Shown: piece by piece, positions 16,654 through 31,892 of the stretch
Position numbering within the stretch: the stretch's first letter is position 1
How the letters are laid out: each line of letters begins with the position of its first letter
From: a virus
Lineage: Duplodnaviria > Caudoviricetes
Direction: 5' to 3' (one strand)
DNA length: 36,529 nucleotides
Virus record (IMG/VR): IMGVR_UViG_3300020045_004911
Location: 1-36,529 of that record
Made by a program: the position numbers and the translations under genes
The notes under the pieces: model-generated
The model's database searches: none
What the model was told of the DNA's origin: nothing
What the model saw: only the letters and a program-made list of their open reading frames with translations

Positions 16654-17142
16654 TTATAGGTATTTTTTATGTTTTCCTTCTCGATACGCTGACCATTGGT
16701 TGAAGTTCTTTCCCGTATGATCATAGATGTATTTTGCCATTCTGATACAACTGGCAGGGTTGGTTTTGTAATCTCCGTAACCTAAGTTCTTTGCTTTCTT
16801 ATCCCAAGACGGTGCGTGGATTTGAAATGCACAGAAGCTAGGCTCCCTGACTCCATTTCTATAGAAGTCACTTTGTCGTTCTTTGACTAAACCTCCTTCA
16901 GCCTTTGCCACAGCCACAGCGGTGTTCGGTATCTCGTGGAACACTGTTCTAATTTCTTTTTCAATTCTCCTCGGTGTCCAATCTACTACTACCTCCAATT
17001 TTACTTCTTTGGGTTCCTCTTTAAAAGTCGCAGCTTCTGCTTTATGCACAATTAATGGTTGCATGAGTATATCTCCAATGATTCCTGTTATAACTCCAAC
17101 CAGTACTGAACCTACTATGAGGTTATTCCAATTTTTTAAAAT
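16654..17142 (-). CDS. Lysozyme-like/lytic transglycosylase with probable N-terminal membrane anchor; start uncertain (ATG 17064 or non-canonical ATT 17142)
   Basis: Motifs AVAVAKAEGG, CAFQIH, NPASCIRMAKYIY and NQWSAY. The frame stays open to 17160 and encodes LIVGSVLVGVITGIIGDIL. Confidence 0.65.
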   Translation of the reverse strand: MLKNWNNLIVGSVLVGVITGIIGDILMQPLIVHKAEAATFKEEPKEVKLEVVVDWTPRRIEKEIRTVFHEIPNTAVAVAKAEGGLVKERQSDFYRNGVREPSFCAFQIHAPSWDKKAKNLGYGDYKTNPASCIRMAKYIYDHTGKNFNQWSAYREGKHKKYL

Positions 17143-17166
17143 AAGCGGGTGTCTTAAATATTAATC

Positions 17167-17264
17167 GGGGGAGGACAAAGGCCGGCACCACACCGGCCTC
17201 CCTATCTCCCCCACTCCTTAAGTTTAGCATGTAAAACCCCTCTGAATATGAAAACTGGGGATAA
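17167..17264 (-). promoter_or_regulatory. Promoter (extended -10) and GC-rich leader hairpin
   Basis: TGcTAAACT at 17229-17221 and TTATCCCCAG at 17264-17255. Hairpin GGGGGAG..AGGCCGGT/GCCGGCCT..CTCCCCC spans 17212-17167. Confidence 0.55.
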
Positions 17265-17291
17265 AAATACCCATATTTCTACGGGTATTTT
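17263..17291 (-). terminator. Terminator of the leftward accessory operon
   Basis: AAAATACCCGTA-GAAA-TATGGGTATTTTT on the minus strand. Confidence 0.8.
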
Positions 17292-17339
17292 AGTTTGTAA
17301 TCGGACTCTAGCGGCCCCGTTTGATTGGACCACCTCCCT

Positions 17340-17426
17340 TCAGAAGTAAATATGTTGTTCATCAAGCCACAGAACACCTATGATGGTGAGCGTGACCCCT
17401 ACGGCGAAGCCAATTAAGTACTTCAT
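17340..17426 (-). CDS. 28-aa single-TM peptide
   Basis: MKYLIGFAVGVTLTIIGVLWLDEQHIYF, with SD AGGGAG 7 nt upstream. Confidence 0.6.
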   Translation of the reverse strand: MKYLIGFAVGVTLTIIGVLWLDEQHIYF

Positions 17427-17430
17427 AGTC

Positions 17431-17589
17431 TTACTCCCTACATTCAGGACAGACACGGATTCCTCCGATACAGAAGCAACGAACTGGTGACGACCGAGTG
17501 GCTTGCACACTCTCGAAGGCTGTATCCTTAGCCGCCTTACGGGGTTCCTTTTTGGGGAACCGTAGATGTAGTTGCCGTTCATTTGGCAT
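17431..17589 (-). CDS. 52-aa Cys-motif protein (not in ORF track)
   Basis: MPNERQLHLRFPKKEPRKAAKDTAFESVQATRSSPVRCFCIGGIRVCPECRE, with SD GAGGAG 7 nt upstream. Confidence 0.6.
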   Translation of the reverse strand: MPNERQLHLRFPKKEPRKAAKDTAFESVQATRSSPVRCFCIGGIRVCPECRE

Positions 17590-17770
17590 CTTTTTTCTCC
17601 TCAAGTAAAATTGTCATTTGCAGGGCTGGGAGAATCATCTTTACGATGGCCCCACAACTTCCACATTCATAAATCCTAATGCGGTGAATGAAAACTTCTG
17701 TCGGTGATACCCGTTCCACTTCGGTAATATCGGAATGGAAGGTAACGTGTGAGCAGCGGATACAGTGCAT
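17579..17770 (-). CDS. 63-aa Zn-ribbon protein
   Basis: CIRC...YECGSCG, with SD AGGAGG 6 nt upstream. Confidence 0.7.
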   Translation of the reverse strand: MHCIRCSHVTFHSDITEVERVSPTEVFIHRIRIYECGSCGAIVKMILPALQMTILLEEKKDAK

Positions 17771-17791
17771 TGCCTTCCTCCTAATGTGCTT

Positions 17792-17971
17792 CTACTTTGA
17801 TTTTAGCACTTTAGTACGTATCCGCTTGGGTGGAGGTGGACAACTTATGTGCCACTCATACCCTCCACCTCCCACTGAATTATAATGCGACCCCAACGTT
17901 ATCTCTTCCTTGCAAGTAAGACACTTCATAGGAGCAAACATTGGCGATCTACGGAGTCTTACTTTTGGCAT
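17792..17971 (-). CDS. Small Zn-binding hypothetical protein
   Basis: MPKVRL...CLTC...WHISC. Start moved to ATG 17971 to avoid overlap. Confidence 0.5.
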   Translation of the reverse strand: MPKVRLRRSPMFAPMKCLTCKEEITLGSHYNSVGGGGYEWHISCPPPPKRIRTKVLKSK

Positions 17972-22356: not shown

Positions 22357-22547
22357 ACTGGAATAAAAACGTTGTTGATACAACTCAAAAAATATGTGAT
22401 GGTTTTGTCTTTAAAGAGTTTACTAAAACTTTTAATCAATCCGAGGCTACAGCTTTTCATGTCATGAAAGGTAATTTTGCAAAAGATGAAAACGGGAACC
22501 CAATTACTCGAACCGAAGAAGAAATGGATAACTGTGAAGATGTATGA
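22353..22547 (+). CDS. Hypothetical protein
   Basis: 64 aa with ATGA overlaps on both sides. Confidence 0.65.
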   Translation: MNWNKNVVDTTQKICDGFVFKEFTKTFNQSEATAFHVMKGNFAKDENGNPITRTEEEMDNCEDV

Positions 22548-23434
22548 TGTACGCTAATGAAATAGGAACTACTGATGTAATTTCTACTGGTCTTTTTATT
22601 GACAAATTAACGGGTATCAATGGAATTCCTAGAGGGGTTATTACAGAAATCTTTGGAGATGAATCGATTGGTAAATCTTCCCTCTGTTTGCAGTTAATAG
22701 CTAAAGCACAAGAGCAGGGTTTGAATTGTCTGTTTGCGGATATTGAATGGTCTTACAGTACTTTGTACGCTGAGACTTTGGGGGTAGACAATAAAAAGCT
22801 GGGCTTGATCCGTGAACGGTTTGCAGAAGACTCACTAGACGCCATAGAAGCCGCCGTAGAGAGTGGTAAATGGGACTTGGTGGTATTGGACTCAATTGGA
22901 GGTATTTTACCTCGTGCTGAGGCGGAGAAGGACGCTGGTGGCAAAACCATCGGAGGCCAAGCAGGACTCATTGCTAAGTTCTGTCGAAAAATTGTACCGT
23001 TGCTAAAAATCCACAATGTTGCCTTAGTAGTAATCAATCACTCGTTTGTGGATATTATGTCCGGCAAGATAATGACTTCTGGGGGTAAAAAACTTGCCTA
23101 CCATAAAGCCATTAGTATCAGACTCAAGCAAAAGTTTGGTGTGACTATTAAACAAGGTGATCGAAAGGTTGGGAAAGTGGTGGTCGGTGAGGTGAAGAAA
23201 AACAAAGAGGCGGCCACTGAAGGTCTTGAACTTGATGGTCAGCTTATCTTTGGTGTCGGGTTTTCTGCTTCGGCAGATGTACTCAATGACGCGATTGATA
23301 AAAAGATTATTACTAAGAAAGGAAACACCTTTTATTTTGGAGAAGAAAAACTTGGGATTGGACTTAATAAAGTTCGTACCCTTTTACAAGAAGATGAAGA
23401 ACTTCTGACTAGAATTAAAAATGCAATGTCCTAA
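22544..23434 (+). CDS. recA: RecA-family recombinase
   Basis: Motifs ISTG..ID, GIPRGVITEIFG, Walker A GDESIGKS, FADIE, VVLDS and TSGGKKL. Confidence 0.92.
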   Translation: MMYANEIGTTDVISTGLFIDKLTGINGIPRGVITEIFGDESIGKSSLCLQLIAKAQEQGLNCLFADIEWSYSTLYAETLGVDNKKLGLIRERFAEDSLDAIEAAVESGKWDLVVLDSIGGILPRAEAEKDAGGKTIGGQAGLIAKFCRKIVPLLKIHNVALVVINHSFVDIMSGKIMTSGGKKLAYHKAISIRLKQKFGVTIKQGDRKVGKVVVGEVKKNKEAATEGLELDGQLIFGVGFSASADVLNDAIDKKIITKKGNTFYFGEEKLGIGLNKVRTLLQEDEELLTRIKNAMS

Positions 23435-27322: not shown

Positions 27323-27574
27323 ATGGAAGTTTCAGAATATCTCAAGACCATCATCACTCCAATGCTTAAGCATAGTGATTCAATAACTATTACTGAAACA
27401 CAAGACGCAATGGGAGTATTGCTTTCTGTTAATGTTCACAAAGAAGATATGGGGCTAGTACTTGGTCGTAAGGGTGAAACCGCTACTGCATTTCGTCATC
27501 TCGTGCGAGTGTACGGACGTGCCAAAGACGCACGTGTAAGTGTAAAGATAAATGAGCCTGTAAATACAGGTTAA
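27323..27574 (+). CDS. khpA: KH-domain RNA-binding protein, KhpA/YlqC-like
   Basis: 83 aa: EYLKTIITPM..H.D.I, V.VHKEDMGLVLGRKGETATAFR (GxxG loop), RVSVKI. Confidence 0.85.
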   Translation: MEVSEYLKTIITPMLKHSDSITITETQDAMGVLLSVNVHKEDMGLVLGRKGETATAFRHLVRVYGRAKDARVSVKINEPVNTG

Positions 27575-27815: not shown

Positions 27816-27968
27816 ATGAACCTTATTGAACGAGTTTTTGAATCGGTCACTAAAAAAATAGAAAAGGAGGAGGCTCCGAAGTTTTACAGTGAAACTGACA
27901 AGCCTAAAGGACAAGCCACTATTGTCCAAGACGAACCATTACAAGACTTATTTGAAGAACATGATTAA
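27816..27968 (+). CDS. 50-aa hypothetical protein (not in ORF track)
   Basis: MNLIERVFESVTKK...LFEEHD, overlapping the GroES start. Confidence 0.55.
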   Translation: MNLIERVFESVTKKIEKEEAPKFYSETDKPKGQATIVQDEPLQDLFEEHD

Positions 27969-28266
27969 ACCCGTAAATGGTCACCTCTTGATTGAACCAC
28001 TACCACAAGAGTCTTTTATCTCCTCAGACCGAGAAACATACCAAGAGATTGGTGTAGTCATCGACTATGATGCTGACTTCGATGATGACACTACTGTGTG
28101 GACAGGAGCAACTCTAAGTCAGTTGCCAAAACTAATTAGTAAAGGAGACAAAGTCTACTTCGACTCTTGGCTTGCTGCCAAGTTTCCAAAAGATAAAGAT
28201 TCTTACTACTGGTTAGTAAAATGGGAAGATGTAAGAGGTGTAGATTATGCGGAGGTATCAGAATAG
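27961..28266 (+). CDS. groES: Co-chaperonin GroES-like
   Basis: MIKPVNGHLLIEP, G.V.., KGDKVYF and LVKWEDVRGV. Lies upstream of GroEL. Confidence 0.8.
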   Translation: MIKPVNGHLLIEPLPQESFISSDRETYQEIGVVIDYDADFDDDTTVWTGATLSQLPKLISKGDKVYFDSWLAAKFPKDKDSYYWLVKWEDVRGVDYAEVSE

Positions 28267-28468
28267 TGTCTGTAAGGCGAATTTCTTACACGACTTCCGA
28301 CAAATAGACCAAACCAGTCAAGGCTACTTAGAACGATGTACGAGATGTGGTAAACAAATGCACTTCCCTTACGAGATTCCGAACGTTGTGTATCTTAGCT
28401 ACCATATCCGGTCAGCTCTATCAGCCAATGACGTCCTTTATAAACGAGAATATCCAAATTCAAAATGA
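28247..28468 (+). CDS. Small Zn-binding protein between GroES and GroEL
   Basis: C....LHDF...ERCTRCG; overlaps both neighbours. Confidence 0.65.
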   Translation: MRRYQNSVCKANFLHDFRQIDQTSQGYLERCTRCGKQMHFPYEIPNVVYLSYHIRSALSANDVLYKREYPNSK

Positions 28469-30048
28469 AAGATACTTTACACTTTTCAGCACAAGACAAA
28501 CTAAAAGCGGGGATTGATAAAGTCGCACGCGCCGTAGGTCAAACTATGGGAACCGGAGGGAGCAACGTCATTATTGAAGCACTGGAGCTACCCGGCTATT
28601 TGGCGACCAACGATGGTTACTCTGTGGCGAATGCCGTACACCTTGCCGACCCCATCGAGAACCTCGGAAAACAAATGCTCCTAGAGAGTATTAATCGAGC
28701 CAACAAGTCATCAGGTGACGGTTCTTCTACTACCTGTGTACTAACAGCAGCGATTATTGAGGAGGGTATGAAACATACTGCAGAAGCTCACCCAATGGAC
28801 ATCAAGCGTAGCTTAGAGGCCTGTCTACCACTTATCGAGGAGAGCCTAAATACCCAGACCCAGCACCTAGTAGCAGAAGATGGAACGTTTGACATCGAAC
28901 GCCTAAAGCAAGTGGCTACTATCTCAGCCGAGGACGAGACTATCGGTAACACTATTGCGGACATTTACGGACAAATCGGACAAAAAGGTATCATTTACTG
29001 GGATGTGTCTAAGACAACCGAGGACTCGTACACTATCGGCTCAGGTATTACCGTAGAGGGAGCCACCTATGCTTCGCCATACATGTGTGACGCTACTGAA
29101 GCCGGACAGAATACTAACGCTATCCGTATCAAGAACCCACATATCCTCCTTACTAAACAAAAGATTGCCAGCTCGTCTGACTTTAATGCAGTTGCCCAGA
29201 AGCTATTTGAAAAGGATGTAAAAGACATTGTGGTCTTTGCGGATGACTTTGAGCCACTAATCATTAATGACTTGATCCTCACCAGAGCTAAAAAGGGCTT
29301 TAGAATTGTCCTTGTAAAAATGCCTGTCCTTTGGAAGGATGTGTGGTTTGAAGACTTAGCCAAAGCTACCGGAGCAAAGATTGTAGATGCTACTGCTGGC
29401 TTTCCTCTAAAGGACTTAACTCTTGAGGACTTAGGAACAGTAAAGAACATCATCATCGACAAACAAGACACCTTCCTAGACGGCATACAAGACGTCACAG
29501 AGCACGTTAAAGTCCTAGAGGAGGAAGACACAGACGAATCAAACCTACGAGCAGCAAGACTGAACACTAAGACCGCAAGGTACTTCGTAGGAGCACAGTC
29601 AGAGTCAGCCCTCTCGTATCGCCGACTAAAGGTAGAGGACGCTATTTCAGCCGCTTTTCAGGCTTTGAATGGAGGGATTGTAGCTGGTGGAGGTATTGCG
29701 TTACTTAATGCGTCTGTAGATGTATCAAGTGGTGAGATTGGCAACCAAATCCTTATTAAAGCGTTGCGTGCTCCTCTGACGCAGATTGTACACAACTCAG
29801 GTAAAGAGTTGCCATCCAATTTCCACGTAGATGGAGTTCTTATTGGAGGAGAAATGGGCTTTAATTCAAAAACAGGAAAGGCTATCAACATGTTCGAAGC
29901 GGGGATAGTCGATCCAAAAAATGTCGTTCTTAATGCAGTTAAAAATGCAATTAGTGTGGCAGCCACAGTCCTAACGGCTCCAACTATCGTATTACTCCCC
30001 CGAATGGAACAGCCACAACCAGAACACCCAAGTCTTATCCAAAACTAA
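28465..30048 (+). CDS. groEL: Chaperonin GroEL-like
   Basis: TNDGYSVA, GDGSSTT, QVATISA, G..SPY, VEDAISA, GIVAGGGIALL, GIVDP..V...A..NA.SVA. Confidence 0.95.
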   Translation: MKDTLHFSAQDKLKAGIDKVARAVGQTMGTGGSNVIIEALELPGYLATNDGYSVANAVHLADPIENLGKQMLLESINRANKSSGDGSSTTCVLTAAIIEEGMKHTAEAHPMDIKRSLEACLPLIEESLNTQTQHLVAEDGTFDIERLKQVATISAEDETIGNTIADIYGQIGQKGIIYWDVSKTTEDSYTIGSGITVEGATYASPYMCDATEAGQNTNAIRIKNPHILLTKQKIASSSDFNAVAQKLFEKDVKDIVVFADDFEPLIINDLILTRAKKGFRIVLVKMPVLWKDVWFEDLAKATGAKIVDATAGFPLKDLTLEDLGTVKNIIIDKQDTFLDGIQDVTEHVKVLEEEDTDESNLRAARLNTKTARYFVGAQSESALSYRRLKVEDAISAAFQALNGGIVAGGGIALLNASVDVSSGEIGNQILIKALRAPLTQIVHNSGKELPSNFHVDGVLIGGEMGFNSKTGKAINMFEAGIVDPKNVVLNAVKNAISVAATVLTAPTIVLLPRMEQPQPEHPSLIQN

Positions 30049-30049
30049 A

Positions 30050-30220
30050 ATGAAAGCCACACCATCACAACCTGAATGTCATGGTAAGAAAAGGTACACA
30101 AAGAATGAAGTTTATCGAGCTAGAAAGTACGTAGGCAAAGCCCGGGACAAAGACATGAGAATATACGAATGTCCCGATTGCTTTGGTTACCACATCACTA
30201 AAAAAGGAACCTATGAATAA
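30050..30220 (+). CDS. 56-aa Zn-finger phage protein (not in ORF track)
   Basis: C.GKKRY...RIYECPDCFGYHITK. Confidence 0.7.
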   Translation: MKATPSQPECHGKKRYTKNEVYRARKYVGKARDKDMRIYECPDCFGYHITKKGTYE

Positions 30221-30368
30221 AAGATTTAGATATTTACGTTCAAGAGTTGGTTGGTGGTTTTCTGTCCAGCACACACGTAATTCACATTATCCATACAACA
30301 GGCGTTACAAATTATATGGTCGCCTAGTAAGATTTTGGGTGAAAAGAGGTTGGCTTAATTGGAAATAA
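30213..30368 (+). CDS. Basic/aromatic 51-aa hypothetical protein
   Basis: MNKRFRYLRSRVGWW..., overlapping the upstream gene end. Confidence 0.5.
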   Translation: MNKRFRYLRSRVGWWFSVQHTRNSHYPYNRRYKLYGRLVRFWVKRGWLNWK

Positions 30369-30372
30369 ATCT

Positions 30373-30531
30373 ATGAATAACTTTAAACTAATAGGAAAGT
30401 GTCACGGATGCAGAAAACAGAAGTGGTTTGTTCGTACAAGAAAGATAAGGCTACCAATTGGTGCATTAGCAGTCAGTAAAGACCTAATGTGCAACAAGTG
30501 TTATAAAGCAATAATAAAAGAAATATGTTAG
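30373..30531 (+). CDS. 52-aa Zn-finger protein (not in ORF track)
   Basis: CHGC...CNKC. Confidence 0.6.
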   Translation: MNNFKLIGKCHGCRKQKWFVRTRKIRLPIGALAVSKDLMCNKCYKAIIKEIC

Positions 30532-30683
30532 AACATGATCCAGAGAAAAACCACAAAGCTATCTCAATCATTGAGCAAGAAGACGGTAATTGGAAAGGGT
30601 GGATGTGGAAGCATGGTAAGGTGGTAGAAGTCCGTCAGGTAGATCCTTTGACGGTACTAAGCCTTCTTTTAACCCACGAATAG
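30525..30683 (+). CDS. 52-aa hypothetical protein (not in ORF track)
   Basis: MLEHDPEKNHKAISIIEQEDGNWKG...LLTHE. Confidence 0.6.
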   Translation: MLEHDPEKNHKAISIIEQEDGNWKGWMWKHGKVVEVRQVDPLTVLSLLLTHE

Positions 30684-30687
30684 GGCC

Positions 30688-30716
30688 GTTTTACGGTGAA
30701 ACTAAAGCTGGGGATA
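30688..30716 (-). repeat. Inverted repeat copy 2 (partner 23765-23792)
   Basis: Reverse complement is TATCCCCAGcTTTAGTTTCACCGTAAAAC, with one extra C. Confidence 0.9.
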
Positions 30717-30733
30717 ACTCGGCTTTTGTTGAT

Positions 30734-30792
30734 TTGACATCGAAAGCGCTTTGGTATACTATATAGGAAGTAAGGAGCTAACCACCTTACAC
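30734..30792 (+). promoter_or_regulatory. Sigma70-type promoter with 5' leader hairpin
   Basis: TTGACA (30734-30739), 17 nt, TACTAT (30757-30762). Hairpin GTAAGG-AGCTAACCA-CCTTAC at 30770-30790. Confidence 0.7.
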
Positions 30793-30800
30793 CCATAAGT

Positions 30801-31010
30801 ATGAGTTACTCACACCAAGAAGCACAACTAGAGCGAGACGAAGCAATCTTCAACGCCCTAGACACAAGAGACAGCGAAGCACTTTACCAACTAGCAGGAA
30901 TCCTCAAGGAAGAAGGAGACGATGAACAGGCCGCTCACCTCCTAAAGGTAGCTCGCCGAATCGACGACGAAGACCAAGCATTTGATCAGGAACGCGATAA
31001 CCAAAACTAA
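30801..31010 (+). CDS. Acidic helical hypothetical protein
   Basis: 69 aa, first gene after the promoter. Confidence 0.7.
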   Translation: MSYSHQEAQLERDEAIFNALDTRDSEALYQLAGILKEEGDDEQAAHLLKVARRIDDEDQAFDQERDNQN

Positions 31011-31012
31011 AT

Positions 31013-31186
31013 ATGAAAATTGTACACAAAGAAACTGGCGAAGACTTCACAAGCCTTATCTATCGCCAAATGAAAGGTGAACTAACCAGAGAAGAAGTAA
31101 TCAAACTAGCGGGACTTGACCCAATAGAAGAAGAAAAGCACTACCAAGAACGTCTACAAGCCAATAAGAATCCCCTTTATGTTTAA
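31013..31186 (+). CDS. 57-aa hypothetical protein (not in ORF track)
   Basis: MKIVHKETGEDFT...NPLYV. Confidence 0.6.
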   Translation: MKIVHKETGEDFTSLIYRQMKGELTREEVIKLAGLDPIEEEKHYQERLQANKNPLYV

Positions 31187-31316
31187 CTATGAACTTCTCC
31201 CAAAACTCACTCATTTAACCCTTACCGGTGTAGATGACGAAGGCAGCCTAGAGTTTATCGGAACTAACGATCAATGGTTACAAGCTAACAAGATGGAAGA
31301 AGAAATGTATGGCTAA
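31179..31316 (+). CDS. 45-aa hypothetical protein (not in ORF track)
   Basis: MFNYELLPKL...GVDDEGSLEFIGT...EEMYG, overlapping both neighbours. Confidence 0.55.
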   Translation: MFNYELLPKLTHLTLTGVDDEGSLEFIGTNDQWLQANKMEEEMYG

Positions 31317-31500
31317 AAAGTACCCATTACTGGACACAGAAAATTACTACAAAGAATTAGATGCATTTATGAAAGAAAAGAACCCAGCAGCAGTAGCTTT
31401 AGGCCGCCTTGGAGGCTTGAAAGGAGGCAAATCAACCAGCGAAGCCAAGAAAGCAGCAGCTAGACGTAACGGCCTTAAAAATAAAAAGAAAACATTATGA
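31309..31500 (+). CDS. Small basic KGG-motif-like protein
   Basis: KNPAAVALGRLGGLKGGKSTSEAKKAAARRNG. Confidence 0.65.
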   Translation: MAKKYPLLDTENYYKELDAFMKEKNPAAVALGRLGGLKGGKSTSEAKKAAARRNGLKNKKKTL

Positions 31501-31673
31501 AAATAATTATAGCAATCCTAGCCTTATGGCTAGTAACCGGAGCGGTCTACTCGACAATGATAGTAAACGAATTACAGTCAGAACTAAGAGTAGAAAAAGA
31601 AATAACCAAAATCTGCACCGGAGAGTTACTTTGGAGAGAAATGCAAATCAACGACTTAAAAGTTTCACAGTAA
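31497..31673 (+). CDS. 58-aa protein with N-terminal TM/signal segment (not in ORF track)
   Basis: MKIIIAILALWLVTGAVYSTM..., with ATGA overlap. Confidence 0.6.
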   Translation: MKIIIAILALWLVTGAVYSTMIVNELQSELRVEKEITKICTGELLWREMQINDLKVSQ

Positions 31674-31689
31674 AACTCACACCTATACA

Positions 31690-31840
31690 TGGGGAGTGGC
31701 GGAATAGGTAGACGCAGAGTTGCTCACTAGCAGTGAGACAAAGGTATAGACCGAGCTACAAAAGTGGTTAATCAGACCAGATACTAGTCACTCTGGCGGC
31801 AGAAAGTGACCATGTAAGGTGCAAATCCTTACCTCCCCAT
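31690..31840 (+). ncRNA. tRNA-like RNA with expanded core
   Basis: Acceptor TGGGGAG/CTCCCCA, Leu-type D arm TGGCGGAATAGGTAGACGC, T-arm-like GTAAGG-TGCAAAT-CCTTAC, and 98 nt between the arms. Confidence 0.7.
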
Positions 31841-31892
31841 AACCACATCTATACACTAGATACATCACATGGTCTGGTGTATTATTGTGTAT

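Follow-up and report, generated by a model that had tools for sequence, protein, structure and literature searches.

Several bacterial RNAs are known to carry an extended complement of the 16S rRNA 3' tail in front of a weak start codon or of no canonical start at all. According to the account in PMC5711450, rreB has a 17-nt complement, binds the 30S subunit tightly, is translated weakly, and is turned over in a start-codon-dependent manner; 20-fold overexpression left growth unchanged, with ribosomes in large excess. As these alphaproteobacterial RNAs (rreB/rreR) are described there, the complement of 16 to 17 nt is followed by a weak start 7 nt after the core Shine-Dalgarno (SD) sequence and by a short frame, with a predicted hairpin over the site. 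Members have a complement of 16 nt or more to the 16S 3' end, a GUG (or AUG) start that overlaps the end of the complement, and a conserved protein of 14 to 18 aa, and they are stand-alone chromosomal mRNAs with their own promoter. The Rfam family CC2171 (RF01867) has a 5' end of the same kind. STAB-SD of Bacillus thuringiensis cryIIIA, as presented in PMC3997798, is a strong SD without a canonical start that lies in a 5' leader, protects the coding region behind it, and needs a 5'-to-3' exonuclease. In Staphylococcus aureus infC, cvfC1, and ccpN, an extended SD directs low initiation toward a weak AUU or AUA start of real, conserved proteins, and AUC is absent from the main text of that report (PMC13009471). 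The actinobacterial family Ms_IGR-5 (RF02471) combines an extended complement with AUC or AUU, a short frame ending in GR-stop, and a second SD before the stop. A double-SD RNA that we encountered in Actinobacteria and Gemmatimonadota (L135, L147, L205, and about 45 further loci) matches this family. Listed as an sRNA, Ms_IGR-5 is probably a mini-mRNA, because a frame of 12 to 19 codons from AUC or AUG is kept. To our knowledge, the extended-SD mini-mRNAs rreB, CC2171, and Ms_IGR-5 have no known function.

The window analyzed here, 36,529 nt long, is a whole linear virus record (90% complete) with phage genes for terminase, tail, endolysin, RecA (22544-23434), helicase, KhpA (an RNA-binding protein; 27323-27574), GroES-like (27889-28266), and GroEL (28465-30048) proteins. 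On its minus strand, an extended SD at 17326..17341 could form 16 contiguous pairs, two of them G-U, with the 16S tail. The initial annotation had proposed 15 contiguous pairs for the 15-mer at 17326-17340, which is present as a single copy in the record. This proposal holds and can be extended, as the G of the adjoining TGA pairs too against a Patescibacteria 16S tail (the 16S end was read from Patescibacteria genomes, with 16S ends making up 19 of the 30 loci fetched). It had also placed the complement across the last stop codon and about 35 nt before a terminator, which the sequence confirms: the first A of the 15-mer is the final base of the TGA (17342-17340) closing a 28-aa open reading frame (ORF), and the terminator stem begins at 17291, 35 nt past the 15-mer. 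The last pairs of the 16-pair duplex would need the base of helix 45 to be opened. For this reason, and because the helix in the crystal structure cited by the rreB paper (PMC5711450) has 12 bp, 16 pairs is an upper bound.

Among 500 shuffled genomes, 9 reached 16 pairs and 21 reached 15, and the match alone is only modestly beyond chance; we judge the element real because it is conserved, not because of its length. It forms the best 16S-tail duplex in the window (-26.8 kcal/mol, against -25.3 kcal/mol for the next, a margin of 1.5), and in naked RNA most of it is predicted to be base-paired. The second-best duplex maps to 30947-30925 on the minus strand, in an ORF-poor 1.8-kb region (30049-31868) without any ORF of at least 70 aa. 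Within the window, no Rfam family reached its gathering score, with weak matches only, and no tRNA was found. Two other identities were rejected: an antisense fragment of a 16S rRNA gene, given that real 16S ends continue differently and that there was no Rfam rRNA match, and a plus-strand mimic of the anti-SD, because changes are tolerated solely as G-U pairs on the minus strand.

The element resembles rreB/rreR in its 16 pairs (including the two G-U), in the weak start 7 nt after the core SD, in its short frame, and in the hairpin predicted over the site. Unlike those RNAs, it has AUC in place of GUG or AUG, a frame of 1 or 5 codons with no conserved peptide, and a position at the end of a predicted phage operon, where it overlaps a stop codon. 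In our analysis it would work like rreB, yet it is not a member of rre. It has no sequence homology to CC2171 (21.5 bits against a cutoff of 75) and was not recovered by a search with that model. Ms_IGR-5 shares the extended complement, the AUC, and the GR-stop ending, but the element lacks the stand-alone chromosomal setting, the second SD, and the longer kept frame of that family, and it has no match to the Ms_IGR-5 model. Like STAB-SD, it is a strong SD without ATG, GTG, or TTG, although a conserved AUC stands at initiation spacing. Past the element, the message has no coding region, only about 85 nt and a terminator, so that it does not qualify as a classical STAB-SD.

The element terminates a minus-strand cassette, a predicted operon of 550 nt, with three small SD-led ORFs of 63, 52, and 28 aa. 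The predicted promoter near 17800 and its leader (17782..17808) consist of an extended -10-like hexamer at 17808-17800 and a leader at 17797-17782; a similar leader stands ahead of the cassette in the related locus L116. This putative promoter was not among the matches of a sigma-70 scan, and no promoter-like site occurs just upstream of the element. ORF1 (17579..17770; SD of -10.2 kcal/mol) encodes four Cys in two CxxC pairs and has three full-length small homologs (78, 50, and 36%). ORF2 (17431..17589; SD of -8.3) has a C-terminal Cys cluster, and a similar Cys tail closes the ORF ahead of the element in L116 and L227 (a weak match, E 7e-4). ORF3 (17340..17426; SD of -7.1) encodes the 28-aa hydrophobic peptide whose TGA is overlapped by the element, and an 80-aa frame from 17582 shares its stop. 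None of the cassette proteins reaches a family cutoff, and the cassette DNA has no match among annotated phages. One DNA sequencing run contained a small share of the window, and its single contig (17346-17496) ends before the element; among the runs listed for the window, there was no RNA run.

Past the element follow the AUC with its 5-codon micro-frame (IKRGR, UAG; 17308..17325), a small hairpin, P1 (17302..17319), that forms in folding when the element is held single-stranded, an A-rich linker, and an intrinsic-terminator-like stem with a U-run (17260..17291), all on the minus strand. The terminator, which was not caught by a simple terminator scan, is possibly bidirectional, judging from an A-run on its other side. 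An antiterminator switch was rejected, as the terminator still forms with the element blocked in all four members folded. The next minus-strand unit (16654..17233), with a promoter-like site at 17233-17221, a leader hairpin, and a transglycosylase-like gene, is probably separate from the cassette.

That relatives conserve the element is borne out by two loci, yet most related phages are without it. A search with the downstream gene gave 16 related loci, 15 of which included upstream sequence, and the module was kept in 1 of these 15, the closest (L116, 68%), where a perfect complement follows different small Cys-rich ORFs. The whole module is also kept in L543 (on the same contig as L287), found by a pattern scan in a 51-kb phage that has only four detectable genes in common with the window; the first cassette ORF there is 54% identical to that of L116. 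Across these three full homologs, all changes in the complement are A/G opposite an rRNA U, with duplex energies of -29.5 to -30.4. The 7-nt loop of P1 is invariant and the A-rich linker is kept, and both sides change in 2 of the 5 pairs of P1 and in 4 of the 10 pairs of the terminator stem. Overall, 44 of 45 cells are paired and 6 of 15 pairs are compensatory, in three related sequences from which the structure itself was drawn. The homologs scored 97 to 110 bits with the covariance model, a range that includes the training set.

The micro-frame varies more, reading IKRGR in the window, IKQGR in L116, and AUC followed by UAA in L543 and L544. In L543, the second small ORF runs through the complement and stops at the UAA right behind the AUC, so that a ribosome translating this ORF would reach its stop with the AUC positioned in the P site and the SD helix free to form. 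One extra U behind the AUC of L543 (G333) sets a KQGR-stop frame at +1 past the AUC-UAA, a geometry that we take, from this single instance, to be reminiscent of the SD-stimulated +1 frameshifting at the prfB stop codon. Looser versions of the layout (SD-led small ORF, stop, complement, AUC, and hairpin), chosen by eye, occur in L544, L113, L421, and L227, whose phages are also SD-poor (1/24, 1/41, 3/41, and 0/26 genes, respectively). The hairpin loops differ in L227 and in L544, which like L116 has 16 Watson-Crick pairs with the tail, although both keep the layout; L227 is weak support because it comes from a Gracilibacteria bin in which TGA may not be a stop (TGAs occur inside khpA). The perfect 12-mer was present in 1 of 22 records reached via KhpA or the neighbor gene, and in none of the 7 near-complete ones. 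The element is accessory.

The initial annotation described the complement as start-less. It is accurate that no ATG, GTG, or TTG follows at SD distance, but a conserved ATC does, beginning at 17325, 7 nt after GGAGG (a GTG lies inside the element), and the description is not supported, since AUC at initiation distance belongs to the motif and sets the frame in a related RNA family. We scanned viral contigs for a perfect 14-nt complement and sampled 120 of about 920 loci, 106 after dereplication; a further sample comprised 120 of about 600 stretches. The 46 of 106 loci inside open frames are probably chance. Within four bases behind the complement, ATCT occurred 25 times against 1.4 expected, ATC 29 times against 6.7, and ATG 18 times against 7.7, and AUC is both enriched and conserved at a spacing of 6 to 10 nt. 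The most enriched triplet is TCT (34 against 4.9), so the P-site codon could be mis-assigned. A U follows AUC in 30 of 36 loci and does not follow NTG starts in this way; it is absent in the window, which reads AUC-AAA, as does L116. The CC2171 consensus has GUG-UCU where AUC-U sits, and the frame may therefore be mis-assigned in some members. A stop directly behind AUC was enriched overall (12/86, P value = 0.0007) but not once the following U was allowed for (12/59, P value = 0.43).

Two further observations bear on this codon. In the double-SD RNA family, whose retrieval pattern required an ATC but left its phase free, the AUC shares the frame of the conserved end in 43 of 47 distinct sequences, spanning six lengths, and the other four have an in-frame ATG. 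In the neighboring gene family, to which the transglycosylase-like gene belongs, 13 of 17 sequences (about eight distinct groups) apparently start at ATC or ATT. Together with the enrichment, the in-frame AUC of the double-SD family and the ATC/ATT starts of the neighbor suggest that AUC is the likely P-site codon. Initiation at AUC has been put at 1 to 2% of that at AUG in Escherichia coli.

The motif recurs outside rRNA genes, as had been anticipated, but the expected position at operon ends applies only to a minority. The ATCT class lies on a stop closing at least 25 codons in 8 of 30 cases (background, 9.6%; P value = 0.006), before a terminator in 6 of 30 (4.2%; P value = 0.001), and on both in 2 of 30; the corresponding counts in a sample selected for ATC are 16, 8, and 6 of 61. 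Ordinary NTG-started sites lie on upstream stops as frequently (12/34). In PH15, a cultured phage of Streptococcus gordonii, the layout lies on the stop codon of the minor head gene, between the minor head and scaffold genes, which makes it a tractable test case; 88 annotated Streptococcus phage records match part of a related stretch, and 24 match most of it. The same putative docking logic at operon-end stop codons of phages from several phyla points to a general RNA signal to which gene callers are blind.

Among 301 Patescibacteria genomes, 12 contain the complement with ATC (control, 1), and 9 of these 12 cases are outside open frames. The exact module was not found in 141 Patescibacteria genomes, and the covariance model gave 10 terminator-only matches in 7 of them. 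An exact 18-mer scan of viral contigs returned one match, inside a coding region, and a first 16-mer scan returned 87, mostly coding as inspected by eye. Of 1,137 literature matches for the motif, the 25 listed were only 16S primers, and our searches, confined to the open-access literature, brought up no description of a phage element in which an extended SD is fused to a stop codon and followed by AUC.

The host is probably a member of the Patescibacteria, as judged from KhpA: the phage protein scored up to 65 bits (45% identity) in 151 Patescibacteria genomes, and the control genomes gave 34 bits in one Bacillota, 26 bits in one Actinomycetota, and nothing in two others. Because this control is thin, we infer the host rather than assign it. 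Related KhpA genes occur in 25 viral loci. The 16S tail of Bacteroidota differs at one position, and that group was set aside for this reason and because the KhpA query was without a match in the one such genome tried. A 12-nt anti-SD pattern is held by 186 of 301 Patescibacteria genomes, and the 16S genes of this group often retain the anti-SD; for Parcubacteria, the anti-SD is given as present in only 48% of 16S genes (PMC9297842). RNase J was found in 59 of 61 Patescibacteria genomes (above the TIGR00649 cutoff). An SD precedes the first ATG of 31 of 191 ORFs in candidate hosts, compared with 15 of 191 in the control, a rough measure. The initial annotation had envisaged a phage whose own genes are SD-free or leaderless; the main genes here do lack SD sites (1 of 37 hand-picked ORFs reaches -6 kcal/mol against the core anti-SD), but the three cassette ORFs do not. 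Most Patescibacteria genes seem to be SD independent, and half of the Parcubacteria may lose the anti-SD; the element would mark those hosts that still expose the 16S tail.

We favor, with a probability only just above one-half, the reading that the conserved complement holds a 30S subunit that rarely initiates at AUC, much as in rreB, and acts on its own message. The subunit would bind the site tightly, AUC would occupy the P site, and initiation would be slow. With the G and A of the stop codon inside the SD helix, a parked 30S would obstruct ribosomes finishing the last small gene, and this obstruction would dampen output from the cassette whenever free 30S subunits are plentiful; the same position points to an effect in cis. 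RNase J would likewise be halted by the parked subunit, which would leave a stable fragment of about 85 nt that ends in the terminator. The micro-peptide itself is probably irrelevant. In E. coli, ribosomes left at stop codons are reported to block upstream ribosomes, and the same source holds that terminating ribosomes contribute little through re-initiation, which makes loading from free 30S more likely. Assembly-defective 30S subunits are reported to relax start-codon checking, and the element might accordingly sense IF3 or immature subunits. Further sources were drawn on (10.1101/063800, 10.1101/2022.01.24.477521, PMC7538156, and PMC6868393), and PMC10783764 contained no CPR terms. Of the 30S tethering suggested in the initial annotation, what is supported is that the site is conserved and fitted to pairing with the 16S tail; of its proposed forms, the classical STAB-SD does not apply and the sponge fits poorly.

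As a sponge, the accumulating 3' fragment would act in trans, sequestering 30S tails and shifting translation toward the SD-less phage genes at the expense of host genes with an SD and of the cassette as well. The low SD usage of the main phage genes is in line with this shift, protection of the fragment at both ends is plausible given RNase J, and small hosts may have few ribosomes. However, candidate hosts use SD little, the anti-SD is lost in about half of the Parcubacteria, most related phages do without the element, and the layout also occurs in Streptococcus phages that are rich in SD. A 30S subunit retained on RNA may, moreover, be out of reach for SD-less messages as well. We regard the sponge as unlikely, chiefly because each of the three genes that share the element's message has an SD and because rreB overexpression did not slow growth; the idea that the element disfavors SD-dependent translation is weakly supported.

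We consider it about equally unlikely that the element is purely a stabilizer, in which 30S binds without initiation and the protected 3' RNA acts otherwise, through its conserved loop. Such a role is consistent with a 7-nt loop that is identical, and an A-rich linker that is kept, in all three sequences, with the unconserved peptide (I, IKRGR, or IKQGR), and with the RNase J of the likely host group, but it leaves aside an AUC that is conserved, enriched at initiation spacing, and frame setting in the related family, and L544 and L227 keep the layout with other hairpin loops.

More speculatively, and with as little likelihood, the mobile 3' module might serve as a timer whose stable RNA would clamp onto the entire 16S tail, as far as the base of helix 45: SD-led accessory genes would be translated first, and the end of the message would then remove anti-SD-competent or immature 30S subunits. 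If so, it would favor the SD-less genes of the phage and belong to a class of ribosome traps, spanning phyla and so far undescribed, in which an extended SD with AUC is fused to a stop codon.

A somewhat lower likelihood attaches to AUC(U) being a structural or protein-binding tag, for example, one that folds back on AGGU and makes the element a switchable ribosome standby site. The U behind AUC, the folding of GGAGGUG onto a later YAUCUCC in many members, and the GUG-UCU of CC2171 at the same place would be explained by such a tag, but not the AUC-AAA of the window and L116 or the ATCT flanks, which show little hairpin-extending bias (next base C/T in 17/36). That the element is an ordinary strong ribosome binding site for a functional micro-peptide is very improbable: the spacing is canonical, the second codon is Lys, and the frame ends in GR like the actinobacterial family, but the stop stands right behind AUC in one of the three full homologs, the peptide has five residues only, and AUC is, on the E. 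coli figures cited, a weak start. A chance match, or the decayed binding site of a lost gene whose ATG mutated to ATC, is just as improbable and already largely refuted, for although about 2 to 4% of shuffled genomes contain such a run and its occurrence among relatives is patchy, it is kept with AUC while upstream genes are replaced and shows pairing-preserving changes and compensatory pairs, and AUC(U) is enriched across unrelated phages.

Other features of the neighborhood were noted in passing. The transglycosylase-like gene (17142-16654, minus strand), two distant homologs of which carry PF01464, has no ATG ahead of its membrane anchor, and its start is likely the ATT at 17142. In 13 of 17 sequences (17157-17142 in the window; L115, L116, and L120-L129), an ATC or ATT in frame with the gene is preceded, at 8 to 9 nt, by a TTAAGAC motif, and this ATC/ATT aligns with the Met of ATG-started homologs. 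The motif is a candidate non-SD initiation signal; TTAAGAC-ATC was not enriched over control in 121 Patescibacteria genomes. The long G/C-rich leader hairpin of this unit (17212-17165, minus strand) is identical in L116 despite differing flanks. Another minus-strand hairpin (17873-17828), in which an SD-like arm is paired with an anti-SD-like one, lies between a TATAAT and the predicted cassette promoter, just upstream of the latter, and is absent from that place in L116. Elsewhere, tiny phage peptides rich in Lys and Gly, about 14 to 18 aa long and with ATG or GTG starts, follow perfect complements in L447, L464, and L481.
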